From Candidatus Parcubacteria bacterium (GTDB lineage: Bacteria; Patescibacteriota; Patescibacteriia; Patescibacteriales; UBA12075): a stretch of DNA of 64,000 nucleotides. The stretch spans positions 298,537 through 362,536 of the forward strand of contig CAWFCE010000002.1 of assembly GCA_963814275.1 (NCBI GenBank), written 5' to 3'. Shown piece by piece: positions 31,826-64,000 of the stretch; within the stretch, counting starts at the first letter, position 1; every line of letters begins with the position of its first letter. A model generated the notes under the pieces. It searched no databases and had not been told where the DNA came from. It saw only the letters and a program-made list of their open reading frames with translations. Made by a program: the position numbers and the translations under genes.

Positions 31826-32833
31826 ATGTTCAATAAAATAAAAAAATCATGGCTTTGGTTCTCGCTACTGGTAATATTCCTGTTTGCCGTTTTTCTTCTG
31901 AGCCGGGGCTGGATATATTCGCCGGAGGAGCTCAGCTATGGCGTGACATTTTCGCCTCAACAGGCGACCGAGCTGGGGCTTGATTACCGGGAGGCTTATA
32001 CGGCCGTATTGGACGATCTGGGTGTGAGAAACCTCAGGTTGCCCGCTTATTGGGACGAGGTCGAGCCGGAGCCGGGGGATTTCGATTGGACAACCCTGGA
32101 CTGGCTGATCAGCGAGGCCGGTAAGAGAAACGCGCGCGTGATCCTGGCGGTCGGCGGCCGCCTGCCGCGCTGGCCGGAATGCCATTTTCCCGACTGGGCC
32201 GATGGCCTGGCCGAAACAGAACGTGAGCAGGCTACGCTTACCTATATCGAAACCGTGGTCAGGCGCTATCAAAGTAATAATACCATCGATACCTGGCAGG
32301 TCGAGAACGAACCGTTCCTGCCCCATTTCGGCGAGTGTCCGGAGCCTGATCCGGATTTTCTCGATGCCGAGATTGCCCTGGTCCGGTCGCTCGATTCCCG
32401 GCCGATCCTCTTGTCCGATTCGGGGGAACTGTCGCTCTGGGTGCCGGCAGCCAAGCGGTCGGATATTTTCGGTACTACTATGTACCGCGACACTTATTCG
32501 AATGTCCTTAAACGCTATATCCATTATCCGATCGAGCCGGGTTTTTTCCGCTTTAAGCGCAATATTACCCGCTTGTTCGCCCGGCCGGAAAAATGGATCG
32601 TGGTCGAACTGCAGGCCGAGCCCTGGGGACCCAGACCGTTCCAGGCGCTTAGTCCCGAGGAGCGGGATAAGACCATGAACCTGGAGAAATTCCGGGACAT
32701 CCTCGAGTTCTCCCGCCAGGCCGGCTTTCAGGAATTCTATCTCTGGGGAGTAGAGTGGTGGTTGTGGGAAAAGGAGGTAAATAATAATCCAGCACTCTGG
32801 GATGAAGCAAGGAAGTTATTTACTAGCACGTAA
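31826..32833 (+). CDS. Membrane-anchored clan GH-A (TIM-barrel, GH5/GH42-like) glycoside hydrolase
   Basis: N-terminal TM helix, LRLPAYWDEVEPEPGDFDW, and the acid/base motif WQVENEPF. The exact family is not resolvable by eye. I chose the ATG at 31826 over the track's TTG at 31808. Confidence 0.55.
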   Translation: MFNKIKKSWLWFSLLVIFLFAVFLLSRGWIYSPEELSYGVTFSPQQATELGLDYREAYTAVLDDLGVRNLRLPAYWDEVEPEPGDFDWTTLDWLISEAGKRNARVILAVGGRLPRWPECHFPDWADGLAETEREQATLTYIETVVRRYQSNNTIDTWQVENEPFLPHFGECPEPDPDFLDAEIALVRSLDSRPILLSDSGELSLWVPAAKRSDIFGTTMYRDTYSNVLKRYIHYPIEPGFFRFKRNITRLFARPEKWIVVELQAEPWGPRPFQALSPEERDKTMNLEKFRDILEFSRQAGFQEFYLWGVEWWLWEKEVNNNPALWDEARKLFTST

Positions 32834-32834
32834 T

Positions 32835-32967
32835 ACATAGCATGTAACACGCAGCACATAGCACATAGCACGCAGCACATAGCACATATTTCAACGTTTA
32901 TAACATATCTTGGAAATATTTCATGCTATGTGATGCGTGTTGCGTGCTGCGTGTAACGTGTTGTGTG
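32835..32967. repeat. Imperfect palindrome built from 7-nt words (catagca/cgcagca)
   Basis: The left arm acatagcatgtaacacgcagcacatagcacatagcacgcagcacatagcacat and the right arm atgctatgtgatgcgtgttgcgtgctgcgtgtaacgtgttgtgtg are roughly reverse-complementary. Confidence 0.8.
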
Positions 32968-32979
32968 ATAAATTATTTT

Positions 32980-33855
32980 ATGTCTAAACAAACAAAGATC
33001 TACACCATGGGCCTCGACATCGGCGCTACCAATATGCGGATCGTTCTTTTCGACGGGCTCAAGGCGGTAGCCGACGACCTCCTGGCCACGCCCAAAGACA
33101 ATCTGGACCATTTTCTGGTAATGGCCCGGGCCCTGATCGATCCGATGCTGGAAAAGGCGGCGGAAATGAAGGTCAAGGTGGCCTCAGTGGGAGTGGGTAT
33201 TGCCGGAACCCTGAATTCGGACCAAAACGTGATGCTGGCGTCGCCGAATCTGCCGATCCTCAATAAGGTCAATTTGCGCGAGCAGTTCAAGGCTGTGACC
33301 GACCTGCCGGTGTTTTTTGACAATGACGCGAGCTGTTTCGTGCGCGGTGAGGCGTTGGTCGGCGCGGGCAAGGGCTGGGACAATATCTACGGCATCACTC
33401 TCGGCACCGGCATCGGTGGCGGCTGGTGGTTCGGGGGCAAAGTATACGAAGGCGCCCACGGCGGCGGCGGCGAGCCGGGCGAGTTTATTATTGATTTTGA
33501 ACACGGAATCGGCCTGGAGGAGGCATACCACAAGATCATGCAGAGTAATCCCGCCCAAGTAGCCGAAGAGGCTTATCGCGGCGATGTGCTGGCGGAGAGA
33601 ACATTTGAAGAATTAGGACGGATGCTGGGGATCGCCTTTGCAAATATTGTCAATTTGATCGATCCGGAAATTTTTATTATTGGCGGCAGTGTGGTTGAAT
33701 CAAGCGCTCTTTTTTTATCCGAAGCGAAGAAGGCGATGCACGAGCATATCGAGTCAAGCGAAGCCCGGAAGAAGATCAAGATCGTCAAAGGCAAGCTGGG
33801 CGATCTGGCCGGCGCCATTGGTGCAGCGTTGCTGGCATCGTCACGTAACGCATAG
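32980..33855 (+). CDS. ROK-family sugar kinase (glucokinase-like)
   Basis: LDIGATNMRIVLF, GVGIAGTLN, DNDASCFVRGEA, and GTGIGGGWWFGG....GGGGEPGEF. The track's upstream extension merely translates the palindrome. Confidence 0.8.
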   Translation: MSKQTKIYTMGLDIGATNMRIVLFDGLKAVADDLLATPKDNLDHFLVMARALIDPMLEKAAEMKVKVASVGVGIAGTLNSDQNVMLASPNLPILNKVNLREQFKAVTDLPVFFDNDASCFVRGEALVGAGKGWDNIYGITLGTGIGGGWWFGGKVYEGAHGGGGEPGEFIIDFEHGIGLEEAYHKIMQSNPAQVAEEAYRGDVLAERTFEELGRMLGIAFANIVNLIDPEIFIIGGSVVESSALFLSEAKKAMHEHIESSEARKKIKIVKGKLGDLAGAIGAALLASSRNA

Positions 33856-33914
33856 CACACAACACATAGCATGCGGTAAATATTTTATGGCTGTAAAATA
33901 GATTTAAATAACAA

Positions 33915-33939
33915 AAAACGGCATTTGGCCGTTTTTTTA
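33915..33939 (+). terminator. Rho-independent terminator after the ROK kinase
   Basis: aacggc-attt(g)-gccgtt followed by TTTTTT. Confidence 0.65.
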
Positions 33940-33951
33940 TTTTTAATAGCT

Positions 33952-34304
33952 TTATCTTAAATTTGATATAATACTCCACAACATTGCTCCGATCTCATCT
34001 GCCGACTTTGCCAAAATTTGATGTTCGTCTTCTTTTATATAAGATTCAGAAAAAGAAAAATATAATAAATATTTCACCTCGCGCAAGGACCGTAGGATGT
34101 TTCCAAAAAATTCAGGTATAATCTGCATTTTTTACCTTTTCTGCGCGCGAACCCTTCGATGTAATTAAGTAAAATCGACAGAACCGCTCGCCTGATTTGC
34201 GAAACAACACAATACAATTCTTCTTTGGGAAATTTTTTTGCCGCCCTGTATACCCTTTTGACGAATAGATGCATTTTCCACTTAAGATTGGCATGAAAAT
34301 CCAT
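33952..34304 (-). pseudogene. Four-helix-bundle protein (23S rRNA intervening-sequence protein family), 1-nt frameshift
   Basis: ORF 34074..34304 (KMHLFVKRVYRAAKKFPKEELYCVVSQIRRAVLSILLNYIEGFARRKGK...FLETSYG) stops early. The next frame continues SLREVKYLLYFSFSESYIKEDEHQILAKSADEIGAMLWSIISNLR* to 33952. Adding one base gives 354 nt, or 118 codons. Confidence 0.7.
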
Positions 34305-34362
34305 ATCGTAAGCAGGAAAGGCAGTAATTAAATGTTGTGTGCTATGTGTTATGTGCTATGTG

Positions 34363-34779
34363 TCACGTCCCCAGCGGTTGCACCACTTTCACCAGTACGA
34401 AATTGACCATGGCGTAGGCCATGAAGATGACGACGATGCCGATGACGCTCCAGATAATGATATCGCGCCCTTTCTCGACCTGGTTCTTATTCCCGGCCGC
34501 CATCATCCAGGTAAACCCACCGTAGATGAACATGACCAAAGCAATAGAGCCGACAACACCCAGGACGGCATTGATGACTTTGCCGATATAAGAGTTGATT
34601 GTATCAGTTGTAACCGGATCCGAATTGCCGGTCAATGGGTTAGAGAGTGTAACAGGTGTGGCCGGTTTTTTAACGCCTCCTGTATTTGCGCCATCACCAA
34701 TTTCTGCCGTTGCAGTCAAGAATGGAGCAAATATTATGGCAATACTAGCAACAATTACAATTTTTTTAAAATAATTCAT
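34363..34779 (-). CDS. VirB2/TrbC-like pilin-like protein, paralog 11 (dispersed, minus strand)
   Basis: Signal peptide, TM1, the core IYGGFTWMMAAGNKNQVEKGRD, then TM2. Confidence 0.75.
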   Translation of the reverse strand: MNYFKKIVIVASIAIIFAPFLTATAEIGDGANTGGVKKPATPVTLSNPLTGNSDPVTTDTINSYIGKVINAVLGVVGSIALVMFIYGGFTWMMAAGNKNQVEKGRDIIIWSVIGIVVIFMAYAMVNFVLVKVVQPLGT

Positions 34780-34894: not shown

Positions 34895-35917
34895 TTATTG
34901 GAATGTGAGCCGGGCGTAGGCATCACCATTTTCCCTGACGAGTCGAAAGATTTCGTCAATTTTATATGGAAGCTCATTACGGTGGTATATTTTTCCGCTC
35001 CTGGTTTCGATATAATACTCCCCAAGCGTCATTTCGCGCTGGGTAAATATGTTGACGCACTTGGCAAGCATCCAAGGCGAAGCTTTGGTATCACCCCGCA
35101 AATCAAAATCAACCACATCGCCTGGTTTGTAAATTGTAAACTCAAATACTGCTTGAATAATGACTATTCTTAATTCGGCAGGGTAGTCTTCCATCGTCTT
35201 TTCCGCTACTGGAATAGGCAATTTGTTTAAAGCCGGCTTAGCTTCTTTAATAATGTCTGCTTTATAACTCTGTCCGTATTTAAGAGATAATTTAAAGAGT
35301 TTCATTTTGCCGAAGGCATCTTCCAAACTAACACCCGCTTCATACCAATTTTTTGATATTCTATCGCTTAACCCGTGGTCTAATTGCCATGATTTATCGA
35401 AGCATTTACTGGCGCTTGAATATTCTCCTTTCTTAAGTTCGTGTTCTCCCTTTTCTAATATATGCTCGGTAATCCATTGCTTGTTATCCGGTGAAAACGA
35501 TAAAATGTGATCATACAAAGTAAATGCATCCTCAATATCGCCAACTGCCAATTGGTAATTAGCCACATCGCTAATAAACTTGACTGCATTAGTTTTAACG
35601 GCCGGATTTGCAGATCCCCGCTTAAATGCGGAAATTGCCTTACCGCGGTCGTTTAATAGCCAGTAGCAGTACCCGAGAATTTCATTTGCCTTCGGGTCAT
35701 TCGGATCTTTGATAAGAATTTCTTTCAAATATCCAATCGCTTCGCCTGTTTTCCTTTGAGCGTCTTCATAAAAATTTGTTTTTGCCAGATTGCGCGCCTC
35801 AGAAAGCGCATCTTCGGCTTTGCCCAATTTAGTAATACTAAACGCATTTGCCGAAGTAACCAATGATAACCCGATTACCAAGTAAAGACTCAGAAGGATC
35901 GCACTTTTTAGTTTCAT
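34895..35917 (-). CDS. Secreted TPR-repeat protein with a C-terminal ~80-aa module shared with the upstream membrane protein
   Basis: Signal peptide (…LVTSANA/FS) and TPR-like repeats (AIGYLKEILIKDPNDPKANEILGYCYWLLNDRGKAISAFKRG). The C-terminal module is PGDVVDFDLRGDTKASPWMLAKCVNIFTQREMTLGEYYIETRSGKIYHRNELPYKIDEIFRLVRENGDAYARLTFQ. Confidence 0.7.
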   Translation of the reverse strand: MKLKSAILLSLYLVIGLSLVTSANAFSITKLGKAEDALSEARNLAKTNFYEDAQRKTGEAIGYLKEILIKDPNDPKANEILGYCYWLLNDRGKAISAFKRGSANPAVKTNAVKFISDVANYQLAVGDIEDAFTLYDHILSFSPDNKQWITEHILEKGEHELKKGEYSSASKCFDKSWQLDHGLSDRISKNWYEAGVSLEDAFGKMKLFKLSLKYGQSYKADIIKEAKPALNKLPIPVAEKTMEDYPAELRIVIIQAVFEFTIYKPGDVVDFDLRGDTKASPWMLAKCVNIFTQREMTLGEYYIETRSGKIYHRNELPYKIDEIFRLVRENGDAYARLTFQ

Positions 35918-36084: not shown

Positions 36085-37202
36085 TCAGGAAAATGTGAGC
36101 ACTGCGATAGCGTCACCATTCTCCCTGACGAGTCGAAAAACCTCGCCAATTTTATAAGGAAGTTTATTACGGTAATATATTATTCCGCTCCTGGTTTCGA
36201 TATAATACTCCCCAAGCGTCACCTCACGCTGGGTAAATATGTTGACGCAATCAGCCAACATCCAGGAGAAAACCTCGTCTCGCCAGTTAAATGAAATTCT
36301 GCTATATCCCCTGGGTAGTAGGTAATATAATCCTTAGTTGAATCGTTATTCTTTCCGGAAAAGAATTTTTTGATTGAGTCAAGGATGCTGCCGGCGGTAC
36401 GTCCGGTGACTGCCGTAACTGTGTGTTCGTTACGTTGTTTTAGAAGTTCTTCATATCTCTTTTGCTCACCGGACGTAATTGAAGCGATATTATGGTTTAG
36501 CTTATATATGTAAGTAGTCATGAAAGCAGCATCAATATCCTCCTTTATCGTTTTATTAATATCTTTCGCCTCATATACAAGACGGTCAACTTTGCTAACT
36601 GCCATTGTGTCATGCAGGCAGAAACCCAGAAACTTATAGGAGTATGACCTTGGGATCAGTAGCAAGAAACTGACTATGAGCGCGACGACACAGTAGAGAT
36701 ATATAAGCCGCTTAGCTATCTTTACTTTCATCCCCCAGACGAAGTCCATTAAGGCGAAAATGATCATCACCAAGAATATAATTGTAATACTCCGGGGATT
36801 GTTTTTAAACGATATGGTGCCGGCAGCCAACAATATGATTGAAATCCATAGCGTGGTGTGCCCAAGCGCGAGAAACCAGACTCCAACAATAGCGTTTTTC
36901 AGTTTCTCCGGCAGCGTTTTATCGTCTTGCAAGCTTATACCGATAATGCTTAATGGAATAAGTGCCGTCGGACGGGTCGCGATGATTATTGAGATAAACG
37001 CTATGAGAATGGCCAAAATAATGTTAGCCTGATACAAACCGATTAAATTAAATACAGTTCCAAAACCAGCCACAACTAACACCGCATAGAATAATGCCGA
37101 AATAAAACGACGGTGGTAATTATTAAGTATCGCCAGCGTATCACTTGGAAAATCCGTGCTTAAAACATATCTGATGTTATCCAGAATATTTTGGAAATTC
37201 AT
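36085..37202 (-). pseudogene. Polytopic membrane protein with the same C-terminal module, interrupted by a 1-nt deletion
   Basis: ORF 36219..37202 ends ...GDIAEFHLTGETRFSPGCWLIASTYLPSVR*. Shifting frame at ~36264 restores ...SPWMLADCVNIFTQREVTLGEYYIETRSGIIYYRNKLPYKIGEVFRLVRENGDAIAVLTFS* (stop at 36085-87). The corrected length is 1119 nt, or 373 codons. Confidence 0.65.
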
Positions 37203-41351: not shown

Positions 41352-41423
41352 CAAATGACGAATGTCGAATTACGAATGTCGAAAGATATCCCATTCGTCA
41401 TTCGAAATTTGTAATTCGACATT
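41352..41423. repeat. Heptamer-word hairpin spacer (gaatgtc/gaattac words)
   Basis: aaatgacgaatgtcgaattacgaatgtcgaaag / cattcgtcattcgaaatttgtaattcgacattt form an imperfect palindrome between tRNA-Pro and tRNA-Phe. Confidence 0.8.
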
Positions 41424-41430
41424 TAAATTG

Positions 41431-41502
41431 TGCCGCGGGTCAGAATTGAACTGACGACACGTAGATTTTCAGTCTACTGCTCTACCACTGAGCTACCGCG
41501 GC
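41431..41502 (-). tRNA. tRNA-Phe(GAA)
   Basis: Minus-strand read: gccgcggtagctcagtggtagagcagtagactGAAaatctacgtgtcgtcagttcaattctgacccgcggca. Confidence 0.85.
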
Positions 41503-41505
41503 CAG

Positions 41506-41588
41506 AGAAAGTAGAAAGTATAAAGTTGAAAGTACAAAGTTATGGTATAAAATAGTACTTTTAACTTTCAACTTTATACTTTCTACTT
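41506..41588. repeat. Heptamer-word hairpin spacer (gaaagta/aaagttg words)
   Basis: agaaagtagaaagtataaagttgaaagtacaaagtt ... gtacttttaactttcaactttatactttctactt. Confidence 0.8.
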
Positions 41589-41593
41589 AATTG

Positions 41594-41666
41594 TTGCGGG
41601 GGTCGGATTCGAACCGACGACCTCCAGGTTATGGGCCTGGCGAGCTGCCAGCTGCTCTACCCCGCG
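41594..41666 (-). tRNA. Initiator tRNA-fMet(CAU)
   Basis: Minus-strand read: cgcggggtagagcagctggcagctcgccaggccCATaacctggaggtcgtcggttcgaatccgacccccgcaa. A C1:A72 mismatch is present as in bacterial initiators. The anticodon loop cccataa has C rather than U at position 33. Confidence 0.8.
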
Positions 41667-41675
41667 CTAATAAAT

Positions 41676-41741
41676 TTCGAATTACGAATGTCGAATTAGT
41701 AAATTTTTTTATTCGTCATTCGACATTCGTAATTCGTCATT
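41676..41741. repeat. Heptamer-word hairpin spacer
   Basis: ttcgaattacgaatgtcgaatta ... attcgtcattcgacattcgtaattcgtcatt. Confidence 0.8.
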
Positions 41742-41749
41742 TGTAAGTG

Positions 41750-41823
41750 TGGGCGCACATGGATTCGAACCATGGACCTCGTCCTTATCAGGGACGCGCT
41801 CTAGCCAACTGAGCTATGCGCCC
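41750..41823 (-). tRNA. tRNA-Ile(GAU)
   Basis: Minus-strand read: gggcgcatagctcagttggctagagcgcgtccctGATaaggacgaggtccatggttcgaatccatgtgcgccca. Confidence 0.9.
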
Positions 41824-42119
41824 GGTATTTTAAAAATAAATTTATTTAAGATTGTAAATATCATTAGGATTTACCCTGGCGGATAATAGAGCGAAATATG
41901 GACCCTTGCCCCGTCGGATGACGGGGTCGTCCTTATCAGGGACGCGCTCTAGCCAACTGAGCTATGCGCCCGGTATTTTAAAAATAAATTTATTTAAGAT
42001 TGTAAATATCATTAGGATTTACCCTGGCGGATAATAGAGCGAAATATGGACCCTTGCCCCGTCGGATGACGGGGTCGTCCTTATCAGGGACGCGCTCTAG
42101 CCAACTGAGCTATGCGCCC
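41824..42119 (-). repeat. Two identical 148-bp tandem units, each a tRNA-Ile pseudogene (intact 5' half, GC hairpin insert, decayed 3' half)
   Basis: The 5' half gggcgcatagctcagttggctagagcgcgtccctgataaggacga recurs ending at 41971 and 42119. It is followed by ccccgtc-atcc-gacgggg and ggtccatatttcgctctattatccgcc (compare ggtccatggttcgaatccatgtgcgccc). Confidence 0.85.
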
Positions 42120-42482
42120 GAAGCAAATTTCGAATTACGAATGTCGAATGTCGAATTTATTTTTTACATAAATTAAAATCATAATATTCGTGAATTCGTA
42201 ATCCCAACAAAAAAGATTGGTTCTAGCTAAATTGAAGGACCAATCTTTTTTGCTTGGTAAAAAAGGAACGGCCCCATAAACCGTTTATGGAGCTAGTAAG
42301 CACCAATTTGCTAGACCACCTTACGACTACCGTGGTAAGGATTTTATCCTGAATCAGAATAAATTCTGATCCATGTACCCTTCCGGAACTTCCGGAAAAG
42401 CCGACCGTAGGAATTCAGAACTGGAATTCGAAACCGAGATTTGGCATTCGACATTCGTAATTCGTCATTCCCGATGTCTCCC

Positions 42483-44078
<1,596 letters not shown>

Positions 44079-44618
44079 GAAAAGTTTTTTGACAGGTTTA
44101 CTTGCCTGTTTAAGCAATGTTGTGTAAACACGAACAGTGCTTAAGGAATATATGAGGAAAATGAGTTTCCTAATTGTTTGTACTTGGTTGTTGCAAATTG
44201 GCGCTTATTAGCGCCATATTATATTCGGTTGTTAATGACCGCAAACGCGATAAATTTGCCTTCCCGCCAGATAAGCAAAAAACAGACCTTACAGCCTGTT
44301 ATCAAGTGTAAGCGGGTCGGTTTTTGGTTTTGTTTTTAGATTGTCATGGATTTATCGCAATTTGTTATTGCAATAATAATATTAAAGGATTTGCCGAAAT
44401 CTGTCAAGGCAATTCAGATAGTAGATAACGGATAGCAGATAGCAGCCAATTTTTTATTTAATATTAAATGATTTATTTAATAAACGAGCTAATATTAGTT
44501 TCCCGGGGTGTGATTAAGGAAAATTATAAATTTATATACAATCAAATTCCGGTTATTTATCAAGAGTATTTGCACAGGTTTTGAACATATTTAAAATGCG
44601 TTTTAAAAAAATTATTTT

Positions 44619-44723: not shown

Positions 44724-46661
44724 ATGTCTGACGATATACTTGATTTAAGGGATAATTCCGTTAAAGACGCGGAAGAAAAATTGGCATCGCCGAAGAGTGA
44801 GCATCGGCGGGAGTTTGAGGCGCGCTTAAAAAGATTGGACGAAAAAGGCGGGGAAGCGGCCGGGGAAGGCGGTGGGGAAGGCGCGGATAATATCATGCCG
44901 GAACCGAAAATCGACCTTCATAGCCAGGATCATCTGGCAAGCGCCAGCGGGAACGATGAGCCGTCCGACGAAACGCTTGATTTGCGCACTGACCAGACAT
45001 CAGCTAATGCCGTGGGCGAGGTTGTCGCCGCAAATAAAAAAGGAAAAAATGAAAAAGAGGATGAAAACCGGAACAAAGATATATCTGGACCCAAGATTGA
45101 TCTCCACAAATTGGACCACCTCTCAAGCGCGAGTGGTGACGATGAGCCGATGGATGAGGCGGTCGATTTGCGTTCTCCGAACGAACGCGTGGAAGTTTTA
45201 AAAACTATGATTTCCGAGCTGGAAGGCGAGCTGGAGAAAATGGAAGGAGCGGTGATTAAATCGCCGGTCAGAGAGCCCGAGAAGGAGAAAACGCCGGAGC
45301 CGGTAATAAAACTGGAAGCGGACATTGCCGATCAGGAAAACAATATTCCCGCGGTAGCGCTTGGGGCCGCAGCGAATATGGCGCAAGAACCGGAAGCTGC
45401 GCCTTTAGCACCCCCGCCGCCACCGCGGCCGACCAGAAAACTCAAGTTCCCCAATGGCTTCCTCTGGGGCACGGCTACCAGCGCGTACCAGATCGAAGGC
45501 GGGGTCAGCAATAACTGGAGCATGTGGGAGCGCTCGATCGGCCGCAAGCTGGAACTGGCCAAGACCAAGAAGAATGTCCATGATTTCATCTGCGGCCAGG
45601 CTTGCGACTCGTACAACCGTTATGAGGAGGATTTCAAGCTGGCCAAGGGCATGAACAATAATGCCGTCCGTGTCGGGATCGAATGGGCGCGGGTCCAGCC
45701 CAAGAAAGACACCTGGAACGTGGATGAGATAAACCATTACCGCGGCGTGCTCAAAGCGGCCAAGAAGCGCGGCCTTACCACCTTTGTCACCCTTTGGCAT
45801 TGGACCATCCCGAACTGGCTGGCCCATATCGGCGGCTGGGAAAACCCGGAAGTGGTCAATTATTTTTTAGCCTTTGTCGATGTCGTGGTCAAAGAATTCG
45901 GTGTTGAAATCGATTATTGGGTGGTCCTCAATGAACCGATGATGTTTGTTTACGGGGGTTATCTTAAGGCTTATCACCCGCCGCAGAAGCGCAGCCTGAG
46001 GAAGGCGGAAAAAGTAACGCGCCATCTGGCGCTGGCGTATTTAAAAAGCTATAATCTGATCCATAAGCATTTTATTGACGCCCAGGTTGGCATGACAAAC
46101 CTGCTGAATTATTTCGAGCCGGCGCATATCTGGAACCCGATTGAGCGGTTATTTGCCGGGACTCTGCACTATTTTTGGAATAAAAGAATTCTGGAAAAGA
46201 CCGCAAATAAATGTGATTTTGTCGGCGTCAATTATTATTTTCATGACCGGATGGTATGGTACCCGCCTTTCCGGAAGAACAAAAACGCATGGACAAACGA
46301 TAAAGGCTGGGAAATATACCCAAAAGGAATTTATCAGGTATTGAAATTTGCCGCCAAATACGGAAAGCCTATTTATATCCTGGAAAACGGCACGGCGGAT
46401 GCCGCCGATAAGCATCGGGAGCGGTATATCAAAGAACACTTGCGGTATGTCCATCAGGCGATCGCGGACGGAGCGGACGTGCGCGGTTATTTCCATTGGT
46501 CGCTTCTCGATAATTTTGAATGGAGCTTCGGCTATGAGCCGAAATTCGGGCTATATACGGTTGACCGCGAGACTTTTACCCGGACCCCGCGTCCGAGTGC
46601 GGAGGTCTATAAAAAAATCTGCAAGGAGAACGCGGTGGAAGTAGACGAAGTACAAAGTTAA
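44724..46661 (+). CDS. GH1 beta-glucosidase with a ~235-aa acidic repeat-containing N-terminal extension
   Basis: GH1 motifs: FLWGTATSAYQIEGG, TLWHW, the acid/base VLNEP and the nucleophile YILENG. The N-terminus contains two copies of PKIDLH..DHL.SASG.DEP.DE..DLR. Confidence 0.85.
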   Translation: MSDDILDLRDNSVKDAEEKLASPKSEHRREFEARLKRLDEKGGEAAGEGGGEGADNIMPEPKIDLHSQDHLASASGNDEPSDETLDLRTDQTSANAVGEVVAANKKGKNEKEDENRNKDISGPKIDLHKLDHLSSASGDDEPMDEAVDLRSPNERVEVLKTMISELEGELEKMEGAVIKSPVREPEKEKTPEPVIKLEADIADQENNIPAVALGAAANMAQEPEAAPLAPPPPPRPTRKLKFPNGFLWGTATSAYQIEGGVSNNWSMWERSIGRKLELAKTKKNVHDFICGQACDSYNRYEEDFKLAKGMNNNAVRVGIEWARVQPKKDTWNVDEINHYRGVLKAAKKRGLTTFVTLWHWTIPNWLAHIGGWENPEVVNYFLAFVDVVVKEFGVEIDYWVVLNEPMMFVYGGYLKAYHPPQKRSLRKAEKVTRHLALAYLKSYNLIHKHFIDAQVGMTNLLNYFEPAHIWNPIERLFAGTLHYFWNKRILEKTANKCDFVGVNYYFHDRMVWYPPFRKNKNAWTNDKGWEIYPKGIYQVLKFAAKYGKPIYILENGTADAADKHRERYIKEHLRYVHQAIADGADVRGYFHWSLLDNFEWSFGYEPKFGLYTVDRETFTRTPRPSAEVYKKICKENAVEVDEVQS

Positions 46662-46734
46662 AAGTTGAAAGTTTATAAAGTATGATGATTACTGCTTTAT
46701 ACTTTATAAACATTCAACTTTCAACTATATTTAT

Positions 46735-51408: not shown

Positions 51409-51487
51409 TTCCAATTTTTGGTTTACGATTTTCGATTTAGATTATAAGCTTAATTCGAAAATCGAAAATCGTAATTCGAAAATTTCC

Positions 51488-53231: not shown

Positions 53232-54260
53232 ATGGACGATTCAAATGAAGACAGAATAATAGCCGGCCAGGAGGCGAATGGCGATAATCAGCTGGATATT
53301 ACGCTGCGGCCGAAGAAACTCGAAGAGTATATCGGCCAGGAGCAGGTCAAGGCCAATATCCGGATCGCGGTCGAAGCCGCCCGGAAGCGCGGCGAGCCGA
53401 TCGAGCATGTGCTGCTTTATGGCGCGCCCGGCCTGGGCAAGACTACCCTGGCCCATATTCTGGCCAATGAAATGGGCACCAATATCCGCGTAACCAGCGG
53501 GCCGGCGATCGAGAAGTCGGGCGATTTGGCGGCCATCCTAACCAACCTCGCCGAAGGGGATATTCTTTTTATCGACGAGATCCATCGCCTGAACAAAGCG
53601 ATCGAAGAAATTCTCTATCCGGCGATGGAGGACTATGCCCTGGACATCATCATCGGCAAGGGACCGAGCGCGCGGACCTTGCGCATCGATCTGCCGCGCT
53701 TTACGATCATCGGCGCGACCACCAAAATGAGCATCTTGTCGGCGCCGCTCCGGGACCGGTTCGGCCTGGTCCATCACCTGCGTTTTTACGAGCTTGATCA
53801 TATCGAGGAAATAATCCACCGCAGCGCCAGGATCCTCGGCATCGCGATCGATGACGATTCCTGCCGCAAGATCGCGACCCGCGCCCGTCGGACGCCGCGG
53901 GTGGCCAACCGCCTTTTGAAGCGCGTCCGCGATTACTGCGAGGTCAAAGGCGACGGCACGATCGGGGAAGTGCACTGCGACGGGGCGTTTACTATGCTTG
54001 ATGTCGATGAATTGGGACTGGACTGGATAGACCGCAAGATCCTGGAGCTGATCATCGACAAATTCAACGGCGGTCCGGTGGGCCTGAATACGATCGCGGC
54101 GGCCACCGGCGAAGATACGGCCACGATCGAAGAGGTGTATGAGCCTTATCTGATGCAGCTCGGTTTCCTGGACCGCAGCCCCCGCGGCCGGATCGCGACC
54201 GACAGCGCCTATCGGCATTTGGGGAAGAAGCCAAAAGACAACCAACGTAAATTGGTTTAA
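53232..54260 (+). CDS. ruvB: Holliday junction branch migration helicase RuvB
   Basis: [13 protein letters not shown], Walker [15 protein letters not shown], Walker [10 protein letters not shown], and GATT....L..PLRDRFG. Confidence 0.95.
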
Positions 54261-54340
54261 TTCCTAATATCTAAATTATAATTTCTAATGAAATTTAAAA
54301 ATATATTAGGAATTATAATTTATAATTTAGGAATTATTCA

Positions 54341-54754: not shown

Positions 54755-55312
54755 ATGTTTTTGATCGACCATCTGCCCAACCAACAACCGGGTGAAAAGA
54801 TAATCCGGATCATCCGTCGGGATTTGTTTATTTTGCTTAAAAAGATAATAATGTTCCTGGGTCTTTTTTTGCTCCCCTTGATACTGCTTTTCGTTATTAT
54901 CTCGGCTGAGCCGCAGTTCCTGATCGGGGAAATATCATTGCCGCTCCTGGTCCTGGGCACAAGCGCCTATTATCTTTTTATCTGGGCGTTTTTCTTTTTT
55001 TCTTTTATCGACTATTATCTGGACGTCTGGTTCATCACCGATGAGCGTATTATTGATATCCAGCAGCAGGGCTTCTTTTCCCGGGTAATAAGCGAGCAGA
55101 AATTGTTCCGCATTCAGGACGTAACGAGCGAGGTCAAGGGGATTTGGCCGACCGTGTTCGCTTTCGGCGACGTCTATGTCCAGACGGCGGGCACTAAAAC
55201 CCGCTTCCATTTCGACGACGTACCCAAGCCGGACGAAGTCCGCGACCTGATCATCAAATTGGCCGAAAAACGCCGCCACGAGGTGCAAACCGAAGAAGAC
55301 CGGGATAGTTGA
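54755..55312 (+). CDS. Membrane protein with a bacterial PH (bPH_2/YdbT-like) domain
   Basis: PGEKIIRIIRRDLFILL, two TM helices, then ...YLDVWFITDERIIDIQQQGFFSRVISEQKLFRIQDV. The stop codon lies inside the first 'gatagttga' word of the downstream repeat. Confidence 0.6.
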   Translation: MFLIDHLPNQQPGEKIIRIIRRDLFILLKKIIMFLGLFLLPLILLFVIISAEPQFLIGEISLPLLVLGTSAYYLFIWAFFFFSFIDYYLDVWFITDERIIDIQQQGFFSRVISEQKLFRIQDVTSEVKGIWPTVFAFGDVYVQTAGTKTRFHFDDVPKPDEVRDLIIKLAEKRRHEVQTEEDRDS

Positions 55313-55394
55313 GATAGTTGAGATAGTTGAGATTGTTGGGATGGTTGGGATGGTTGGGATAATCAAATTTAATCCCAACCATCCTAACAATCCC
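55304..55394. repeat. 9-nt-word hairpin (gttgagata / gttgggatg)
   Basis: gatagttgagatagttgagatagttgagattgttgggatggttgggatggttgggat, then aatcaaattt, then aatcccaaccatcctaacaatccc. Confidence 0.8.
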
Positions 55395-56531
55395 ATGAAG
55401 CTAAATGATTTCGATTACAATCTGCCCAAAGAGCTGATCGCTCAGGAGCCGATGAAACCGCGTGACCATTCGCGGCTTCTTTTGTTGGACAAAGAGTCGG
55501 GCGAGATCGAACACCGACATTTCAATGACCTGGCGGACTATTTGCGGGCCGGTGATGTTATCGTAATGAATAATTCCAAAGTGTTTCCCGCGCGTTTGAT
55601 CGGCCAGCGCGAAGGAAGCGGCGGGAAAGTGGAAGTGTTTTTATTGCGAAACCTCTCCCCCCATTCCCCTCTCCTAGCCAGCAGAAGGGGTGGTATAGAT
55701 AAAGGTGAGGTTTGGCAGTGTTTGGTGGGCGGACATCGGCGCAAAGAAGGTTTGGCGGTAGAGTTCGAAAATGGATTGGAAGCGGAAGTTACCAAAAACA
55801 ATCAGGATGGCACCTTTGATGTCCGGTTCAATGAAAGCGGAAAGGTGTTAATGGATATTGTGAATAAAATTGGACAAATGCCGTTGCCACCCTATATTAA
55901 ACGTAGGGGCATTGCGCGCAATGCCCGTACGGACGAGGCGAATTACCAAACTGTATATGCCGATGACAGTAAGGTCGGGTCAGTGGCGGCGCCGACTGCC
56001 GGTTTCCATTTTACTCCTGAACTGATCGATAAATTGCAGAAGAAAGGCGTCCAATTCGAATATATTACCCTGCATGTCGGCCTGGGCACGTTCGCGCCGG
56101 TTAAGACGGATGACATCACAAAACACAAAATGCACGCGGAATGGGTCGAAGTTGAAGGTAAATTGTTGGCGAGTATAGCCAAGGCAAAAAAAGAGGGCCG
56201 GAGGATAATTGCCGTTGGAACCACATCGGTTAGAACACTGGAATCAATATATAAAAAAATTCTCAGTATAAATTCTGAAACAATAAATAAAATCGAAAAT
56301 CGAAAATCGAAAATCGAAAATTACCAAGGTTGGGTGAATATTTTCATCTATCCGGGTTATGAATTCAGGATTGTCGACGCGATGATCACGAATTTCCATC
56401 TGCCCAAATCGACCCTGCTCATGCTGGTGAGCGCGTTTGCGGGAAAGGAAAATATTGACAAGGCCTATCAATCTGCTATAAAGAATGGATACCGATTTTT
56501 TTCTTACGGTGATGCTATGTTGGTATATTAA
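55395..56531 (+). CDS. queA: S-adenosylmethionine:tRNA ribosyltransferase-isomerase
   Basis: MKLNDFDYNLPKELIAQEP, PLPPYIKR, GSVAAPTAGFHFT, AVGTTSVRTLES, IFIYPGYEF, ITNFHLPKSTLLMLVSAF. A (cgaaaat)x4 tract lies at 56291-56321. Confidence 0.9.
   Translation: MKLNDFDYNLPKELIAQEPMKPRDHSRLLLLDKESGEIEHRHFNDLADYLRAGDVIVMNNSKVFPARLIGQREGSGGKVEVFLLRNLSPHSPLLASRRGGIDKGEVWQCLVGGHRRKEGLAVEFENGLEAEVTKNNQDGTFDVRFNESGKVLMDIVNKIGQMPLPPYIKRRGIARNARTDEANYQTVYADDSKVGSVAAPTAGFHFTPELIDKLQKKGVQFEYITLHVGLGTFAPVKTDDITKHKMHAEWVEVEGKLLASIAKAKKEGRRIIAVGTTSVRTLESIYKKILSINSETINKIENRKSKIENYQGWVNIFIYPGYEFRIVDAMITNFHLPKSTLLMLVSAFAGKENIDKAYQSAIKNGYRFFSYGDAMLVY

Positions 56532-60544: not shown

Positions 60545-64000
<3,456 letters not shown>

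Follow-up and report, generated by a model that had tools for sequence, protein, structure and literature searches.

The stretch of DNA considered here (hereafter the window) comprises 64,000 nucleotides of a Candidatus Parcubacteria bacterium (GenBank assembly GCA_963814275.1, contig CAWFCE010000002.1), and near its middle, between two protein genes, lies a small gene of the four-helix-bundle (4HB) family enclosed by two inverted arrays of short words, an arrangement that we call the cassette (Table 1). We use 4HB for genes matching TIGR02436/PF05635, and all positions are window coordinates. 4HB genes are classically encoded inside intervening sequences (IVSs) of 23S rRNA, which sit in helices 9, 25 and 45. 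In profile searches, the product of the window gene, repaired to 117 aa, matched TIGR02436 (E 3.7e-25, 88.3 bits, cut-off 24) and PF05635 23S_rRNA_IVP (E 3.6e-24, 85.5 bits, cut-off 33.8); each separate half of the gene matches the corresponding half of both models, and PDB 2GSC (Xanthomonas XCC0516) is the sole solved relative by sequence (E 1.4e-9). The reading frame is broken: the minus strand has one open reading frame (ORF) at 34304..34074 (76 aa) and another, in a different frame, at 34128..33952 (58 aa), and the two join between ...ETSYG and SLREV.... Compared with TACGGTTCG in the DNA of the nearest homologue (locus L138), the window has TACGGTCC, which places the loss of one T at 34088/34089. 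An earlier sequence-only reading of this DNA had described an IVS-type four-helix-bundle gene between a ROK kinase and a pilin gene, with a 1-nt deletion near 34085-34091. The family and the setting are confirmed by the profile matches of the gene and of its flanks, and the lost T falls inside that range; only the length, given then as 118 codons, needs correction to 117. The closest homologues of the protein are 55-64% identical, those with named sources coming from Patescibacteria/Parcubacteria, and no close relative was found in the viral contigs searched. We also considered the accessory protein Avd (bAvd) of diversity-generating retroelements (DGRs) and rejected it, as the product reached 38.4 bits with NF033474 (cut-off 80) and 33.6 with PF22296 (cut-off 40), and neither flanking gene is a reverse transcriptase.

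Table 1. Features of the cassette, its flanks and the 23S rRNA gene, in window coordinates
Feature	Position	Strand	Remarks
4HB gene, TIGR02436 / PF05635 '23S rRNA IVS protein'	33952..34304	-	two ORFs via one lost T
Arm beside ROK	33843..33877		heptamers CATAGCA CACAACA CATAGCA; paired in minimum-free-energy fold
Arm beside pilin-like gene	34331..34368		reverse-complement words CATAGCA CATAACA CATAGCA CACAACA; ends at pilin stop codon 34363-34365
Bidirectional intrinsic-terminator-like hairpin	33913..33937		within arms, just past 4HB stop codon
ROK-family kinase gene, PF00480 E 2e-47	32980..33855	+	flanking host gene, convergent with 4HB gene
T4SS-pilin-like gene, PF18895 E 3e-12	34363..34779	-	co-directional upstream neighbour of 4HB gene
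ORF-less hairpin, CATAGCA/CGCAGCA words	32824..32970		fills GH-ROK gap; cross-complementary to cassette arms
ORF-less word-hairpin expansion of 23S, helix 25, classical IVS site	61226..61379	+	E. coli ~540-552; alignment to E. coli 23S
ORF-less word-hairpin expansion of 23S (CTAAAT-type words), helix 45, classical IVS site	62045..62194	+	E. coli ~1162; alignment to E. coli 23S

The inverted arms at 33843-33871 and 34340-34368 measure 29 nt each and are 90% complementary, with an alignment score of 43 against a maximum of 22 among 100 shuffles. Both carry tandem words of period 7 (CATAGCA/CATAACA/CACAACA), and the minimum-free-energy and centroid folds of both strands are closed by a stem of these arms (z = -4.7 and -4.4). 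What had been proposed from the letters, namely that inverted repeats of catagca/cacaaca words bracket the gene and could form a stem around it, is thus borne out by both the alignment and the fold. The arms reach a few bases into the 3' ends of both neighbour genes, with the TAG stop codon of ROK (33853-33855) lying inside the first word and the TGA of the pilin-like gene abutting the last. Viewed along the strand of the 4HB gene, the pilin-side arm is the 5' arm and holds stop codons in three frames, and the ROK-side arm is the 3' arm and holds ATG in three frames. The terminator-like hairpin is equivalently placed in the cassettes of L001, L007 and L138, and in the gene-less cassette of L099.

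Our survey of related loci indicates that this arrangement is common for the gene family. We scanned 80 loci with one genome per species, mostly titled as metagenome-assembled genomes of the Patescibacteria group and representing one 4HB subfamily, and aligned the 200-nt upstream flank of each gene to the reverse complement of its downstream flank. A score of at least 32, which exceeds the top shuffle score at each of 75 loci, was taken as a bracket; controls were ORFs of the same loci that are not adjacent to a 4HB gene, and thresholds, ORF calls and start codons were simple heuristics. Bracketing word arms were found around 49 of the 75 testable 4HB genes (65%), compared with 10 of 197 control ORFs, or 6/193 (3%) once three TIGR02436 paralogues and one spurious ORF are removed (Fisher p ~1e-27 for 49/75 vs 6/193). 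The six remaining control matches are a GxxExxY gene, a gene for a RAYT-like (REP-associated tyrosine transposase) protein, a lexA-like gene in L077 and three other genes; the L077 gene was identified from reading the sequence, and its counterpart in L064 stands between two 4HB cassettes. No rRNA was found in the 80 loci.

The bracketed loci share a consistent geometry. The arm period is 7 in 22 of the 49 loci and 8 in 27, with no other value, the 5' arm is A+C-rich in 43, and the arms, on average 32 nt long and typically of 4-5 words, are separated from the gene by median distances of 9 nt on the ATG side and 7 nt on the stop-codon side. Co-directionality with both neighbours is found for 63 of 70 copies, and none of the 70 is antisense between co-directional neighbours. 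Median gaps to the neighbour genes are 37 and 32 nt, about one arm length; the extreme case, L005, consists of the TAG of gatC, a 26-nt arm, the 4HB gene from ATG to TAA, a second 26-nt arm, and the ATG of gatA. Stop codons occur in all three frames in 31/49 of the 5' arms (14% in composition-matched shuffles) and ATG in all three frames in 27/49 of the 3' arms (0% in shuffles), where ATG density is 9.2 per 100 nt against an expected 2.0. Such three-frame content is possible because the period is 7 or 8; periods of 6 or 9 would not allow it. By these counts, 4HB genes of Patescibacteria are normally packaged as an arm-ORF-arm unit, as are those of cyanobacteria with different words, and the usual place of a cassette is the interval from a stop codon to the start codon that follows, in the same direction as the host gene upstream.

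The cyanobacterial evidence comes from plasmids, on which 6 of 7 4HB genes, in a set scored without control genes, are bracketed by inverted heptamer arrays whose words include TCAGGAG, AGGGTGT, TAGGGAG and AGGTGAC. In two of these cases (L133 and L136), the 4HB gene and its long heptamer arrays are located in a CRISPR locus, between cas6 and cas4, and the GCTAAAA arrays of L133 run to more than 10 copies on each side. 23S_rRNA_IVP ORFs have been reported inside cas operons before (PMC3936711).

The comparison of words shows that word type follows the ORF subfamily and not the other hairpins of the host, as three or more AACA motifs are present in 24/49 of the 4HB arms vs 2/28 of the ORF-less hairpins of the same loci (p = 1.4e-4). 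The unit occurs at sites as unrelated as gatC/gatA, the vicinity of lexA and ROK/pilin; the same ORF subfamily carries the same word type, and the exact words are private to each cassette. Since word type goes with ORF subfamily, arms and ORF are inherited, or travel, together as a unit. Several loci hold further elements of this kind. Three 4HB cassettes of different subfamilies and with private words lie within 2.3 kb in L064 (1100-3400), two of them flanking a lexA-like gene. In L060 (1400-2420), a RAYT-like gene flanked by GGGGACTGTCCCC-type palindromes shares the locus with a 4HB cassette. In L075 (2230-2730), a GxxExxY (TIGR04256) gene lies inside a perfect 44-nt inverted repeat of TACTAAT-type words, irregular words included, that exactly spans the distance from the upstream stop to the gene's ATG and from the gene's stop to the next ATG; 4HB genes are thus not the only cargo enclosed by word arms.

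The site between ROK and pilin is itself occupied in related lineages. The gene order Polysacc_synt / pilin / GH / ROK / 4HB is common to three independent lineages, namely L001 (with L003, L004 and L020), L007 and L138, in all of which the 4HB gene is intact and co-directional with ROK, with a pilin gene on the opposite strand or another gene downstream; in the window it lies on the opposite strand from ROK. Arms at these loci consist of CATAACA/CGTAACA/CATAGCA-type words, again with an inner terminator after the stop codon. The L138 protein (P0014), which sits at the same site, is the nearest neighbour of the window protein in the distance matrix, and the ROK proteins across lineages with an occupied site are only 49-71% identical. 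In L099 (ROK 62% identical), the ROK-pilin gap keeps two word arms and the terminator without the gene, and in L100 and L102 it holds an unrelated 83-aa ORF without word arms. Given four related lineages with an intact copy in the opposite orientation, and the arms-only L099 as a fifth, the simplest reading is that the cassette has long resided at the ROK/pilin site and been inherited vertically there, that its interior was most likely flipped in this lineage by recombination between the arms, and that the window copy is probably decaying. The simplest reading of L099, which looks like the end state of such decay, is that cassettes decay to ORF-less hairpins.

The gap on the other side of ROK has a comparable content. 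Between GH and ROK, L001 holds an ORF-less hairpin built from other words, and in L007 a further 4HB gene occupies the gap; it belongs to a different subfamily, is damaged by a frameshift and an in-frame stop, and is bracketed by yet other words. With a degraded 4HB gene in the same gap of L007, the GH-ROK hairpin of the window is possibly a relic cassette. By eye, the GH-ROK gap of L099 (2761-3500) holds what seem to be degraded GIY-YIG-type ORFs between inverted GTCATTCCCGCG...CGGGAATGAC motifs, and the intergenic gaps on either side of ROK look like hot spots where small selfish genes settle. One arm in L007 (3862-3980) has grown to about 17 tandem CACATAA/CACGTAA heptamers where the other has about 5, which shows rapid slippage in the arms.

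These observations bear on mobility. The sequence-only reading had suggested a transposable cassette that can reside outside rRNA, and the second half of that proposal holds: the unit recurs outside rRNA in many contexts, with 49 of 75 genes bracketed and no rRNA in the loci. Active transposition of the window copy is not supported: the site has long been occupied, the unit contains no transposase, target-site duplications are not consistent, and the window holds no second copy. Recent mobility likewise lacks support because the site is occupied across lineages whose ROK proteins have diverged so far. The sequence GTCACGT is present on both outer flanks (33840-33846 and 34362-34368), where it overlaps the palindromic ACGT and both coding ends, and no comparable direct repeat was seen in L138 or L005. 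Neither several near-identical copies nor a cognate transposase was encountered; there is one 4HB gene in 64 kb, a tblastn search of the window having found no second, and its best homologues are at most 64% identical.

The link to 23S rRNA IVSs can be assessed within the same window. With its place between ROK and pilin, 26 kb away from the 23S gene, the cassette is not an insertion in a 23S helix; it does have the terminal inverted repeats forming a long stem that characterize IVSs. The 23S gene carries word-built hairpins at both helix 25 and helix 45, and in keeping with the earlier reading none of the 23S expansions holds a 4HB-like ORF, the tblastn search of the 23S part being negative. 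In Coxiella, the IVS is reported to measure 444 nt and to have a 28-bp terminal stem with an S23p (4HB) ORF in the loop; ahead of the ATG stand 2-3 tandem GACAGAT heptamers plus a degenerate copy, in numbers that differ from strain to strain, the ORF is decaying, and RNase III cleaves the stem midway, at the first of the repeats (PMC4990558). The earlier suggestion that IVSs are linked to word hairpins gains support from these tandem heptamers together with the word hairpins of helices 25 and 45. In the openly searchable literature, we found no published link of 4HB/S23p genes to heptamer or inverted word repeats beyond the heptamer note on Coxiella, and no paper on inverted word arrays enclosing 4HB genes. 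23S_rRNA_IVP ORFs are also known from a few 16S and 23S insertions of the Candidate Phyla Radiation (CPR) (PMC11270868).

Word hairpins are widespread elsewhere in the window. Further 23S expansions at 60876-60969, 61487-61539, 62745-62838 and 62953-63103 correspond to E. coli ~291, ~653, ~1753-1768 and ~1863-1877, and several of them are built as word hairpins. The two rRNA genes are unlinked, with 16S at 42486-44084 on the minus strand and 23S from 60541 onward on the plus strand. ORF-less word hairpins at 41352-41753, 46656-46726, 51409-51484, 54258-54336 and 55306-55417, each with its own 7-9-nt words (ATTCGAC, AAAGTTG, AAATCGA, TAGTTGAGA and others), fill spacers between consecutive tRNA genes and co-directional protein genes.

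Taking the locus and the survey together, we lean, though not far beyond an even chance, to the view that the window cassette and the ORF-bearing 23S IVSs are elements of one kind, the cassette being an intergenic representative. In such an element, a long stem whose arms are inverted arrays of 7-nt words would carry in its loop a 4HB gene that lacks a promoter and brings its own terminator. In a transcript, the paired arms may loop the insert out, so that the stop codon of the host gene comes to lie beside the start codon that follows or, in rRNA, a split helix is closed again. RNase III, which has been demonstrated to act on the Coxiella IVS, would cut the stem here too, and the host RNA would then suffer little from the insert. 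Word hairpins that lack an ORF, those of 23S helices 25 and 45 included, could be relics or relatives of cassettes.

A number of observations weigh against this view or some part of it. In the 49 stems, read on the sense strand, G.U mismatches (108) are about as frequent as A.C mismatches (114; p = 0.74); as G.U is no better tolerated than A.C, there appears to be no strong selection for an RNA stem, and this fits a constraint at the DNA or sequence level. The arms at the orthologous site are 80-86% similar between lineages, about the same as the complementarity of the two arms of one element, a comparison that does not discriminate compensatory change because all arms at the site use near-identical words; the word sequence, and not pairing alone, seems to be constrained. 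Symmetric mismatches and conserved words together leave room for a DNA-level or protein-binding role of the words, and the data also allow a direct codon-level role of the arms. RNase III cleavage has been shown for the Coxiella IVS, and its extension to intergenic copies is by analogy. No clear bracket was found for 26 of the 75 copies, for example the Portnoybacteria copies in type II secretion system loci. A neighbour-joining tree of the 4HB proteins gave 0/50 bootstrap support to any grouping, did not recover an orthologous ROK-site clade, and placed the window copy on a long branch. We therefore take the orthology of the ROK-site copies from synteny and nearest-neighbour context, and a tree without such a clade would also accommodate an independent insertion in the opposite orientation. 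The frameshift of the 4HB gene may, moreover, be an assembly error, as a similar loss from a TT pair occurs 2 kb away.

This last point touches only the decay of the window copy, and in its full form it would mean that the gene is intact, the cassette normal, and the frameshift an error of assembly or basecalling, which we regard as doubtful yet quite possible. Both halves of the gene are otherwise stop-free and well-scoring, a second T lost from a TT pair breaks another gene at 36219-36261, and a 148-nt tandem repeat at 100% identity hints at possible assembly artefacts. On the other side, the site of the lost T in the 4HB gene is not a long homopolymer, decayed copies are known elsewhere (the second copy in L007 and the ORF-less L099), and the Coxiella IVS ORF is also reported as decaying (PMC4990558). 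At the second lesion (36180-36330, minus strand), a 327-aa ORF at 36219-37202 has its continuation at 36085-36261 in a different frame, and this continuation is a paralogue of the C-terminal part of the TPR protein at 34895-35917. Here too one T seems to have been lost (CCTTGG to CCTGG), as in the 4HB gene. The tandem repeat (41779-42120; 148-nt unit, 2.3 perfect copies) begins inside tRNA-Ile (41749-41823, minus strand) and lies between that gene and the 16S gene, thereby duplicating part of the tRNA; it represents either a recent duplication or an assembly artefact.

A different account of the whole cassette would make it a foldback element acting at the level of DNA, in which the arms are terminal inverted arrays of words bound by the pentameric 4HB protein or by a host enzyme for mobilisation, recombination or cruciform formation, and RNA pairing is incidental. 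The symmetric mismatch spectrum and the conservation of word sequence over deep divergence both speak for it, as do the correlation of word type with ORF subfamily, the perfect 44-nt inverted repeat around the GxxExxY cassette in L075, the flipped interior of the window copy relative to four related lineages, and the occurrence of the same ORF-plus-word type in many gene contexts; the typical arm of 4-5 words may also be set beside the report that a solved family member is a pentamer (PMC4990558). We nevertheless consider this account unlikely, as the unit contains no transposase or recombinase, a target-site duplication is inconsistent (GTCACGT at the window copy, none in L138), near-identical copies are absent and words are private to each cassette, residence at one site has been long and vertical, and GxxExxY cargo has word arms without any 4HB gene. 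The strict co-orientation of the cassettes with the upstream gene, together with the stop and start content of their arms, points instead to a role at the level of expression.

It is also conceivable that the word hairpins are generic intergenic features (spacers, terminators or processing elements arising from slippage and palindrome correction) and that the 4HB gene is a passenger that landed in or beside one. Many of the hairpins in the window, between genes, between tRNAs and inside the 23S, lack an ORF, and they outnumber 4HB genes. A passenger would hardly give a bracket around 65% of 4HB genes against 3% of other genes, a word type that tracks ORF subfamily, arms and ORF that exactly fill the gatC-gatA junction of L005, and the same design in cyanobacteria, and we hold this explanation to be quite improbable. 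Finally, an invertible switch (inverton), with the arms as recombination sites toggling the gene within a population, would account for a segment that is flanked by an inverted repeat and opposite in orientation to four orthologous loci, and yet is most improbable given that the absence of antisense copies between co-directional neighbours (0/70) marks flipping as rare, that no invertase gene is adjacent, that the arms are imperfect (90%), and that where the neighbours converge, the cassette has an upstream gene in its own direction whichever way it is turned.

Returning to the cassette as an intergenic relative of ORF-bearing IVSs, we may carry the argument further, to a proposal that we find rather doubtful in its full extent. 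In this proposal, 4HB genes with inverted arrays of 7- or 8-nt words would constitute phylum-spanning selfish 'stop-start adapter' cassettes, so far undescribed: the 5' arm would end upstream frames, the 3' arm would offer a start in any frame, and the stem would bridge the host RNA. 23S IVSs, the heptamer (STRR) hairpins of cyanobacteria and the word hairpins of Patescibacteria would be the same element with or without its gene, and the pentameric protein may recognise its own words. If the pattern holds in a full survey, it offers a testable model for the tolerance of insertions in operons and rRNA of streamlined genomes, a simple rule for annotating odd hairpins and many small genes now called 'hypothetical', and, in the words themselves, a candidate nucleic-acid ligand for the 4HB protein family. 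Three puzzles of about 35 years' standing would meet in one object, namely the origin of 23S IVSs, the meaning of tandem heptamers (STRR), and the function of the large 4HB/Avd-like family. The window locus itself is modest, an old, flipped and probably dying copy, which exposes a broad pattern for which we found no published description.

Among known systems, bAvd of DGRs belongs to the same fold superfamily and gives weak matches only; it differs in that its scores lie under both cut-offs and no reverse transcriptase flanks the gene. Elements of the miniature inverted-repeat transposable element (MITE) or Foldback type resemble the cassette in their inverted terminal arrays of short tandem words, variable in copy number, and in their ORF-less derivatives, but the cassette has no transposase partner, no consistent target-site duplication and no near-identical family, and its words are private. 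Closer in form are the short tandemly repeated repetitive (STRR) sequences of cyanobacteria and the TAACTGA repeats of Beggiatoaceae and cyanobacteria, which are intergenic tandem 7-nt words that often end at a start codon without a Shine-Dalgarno sequence, and which in the case of TAACTGA place stop codons in all three frames (PMC4679880). Cyanobacterial 4HB genes are bracketed by such heptamers; the published repeats are described as direct arrays and not as inverted pairs enclosing a 4HB gene, and we found no paper in the openly searchable literature linking them to PF05635.

The rRNA insertions offer a further comparison. In ORF-less 23S IVSs of the Salmonella, Yersinia and Campylobacter type, and in CPR rRNA insertions, extended stem-loops replace the tips of helices 25 and 45, and the window 23S has such hairpins, here built from words. 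The ORF-less IVSs differ from the cassette in carrying no gene, and the CPR insertions mostly hold LAGLIDADG or GIY-YIG genes or group I introns and only in a few cases 23S_rRNA_IVP (PMC11270868). The Coxiella IVS differs from the window element in that the latter lies between protein genes and has its own terminator, and RNase III excision of the latter would be by analogy. In other respects the two are alike: they belong to the same family (PF05635/TIGR02436) and the same size class (526 nt here vs 444 nt), in both the ORF lies in the loop between terminal inverted repeats of about 28-29 bp, both carry tandem heptamers in the 5' arm just before the ATG, and in both the ORF tends to decay.

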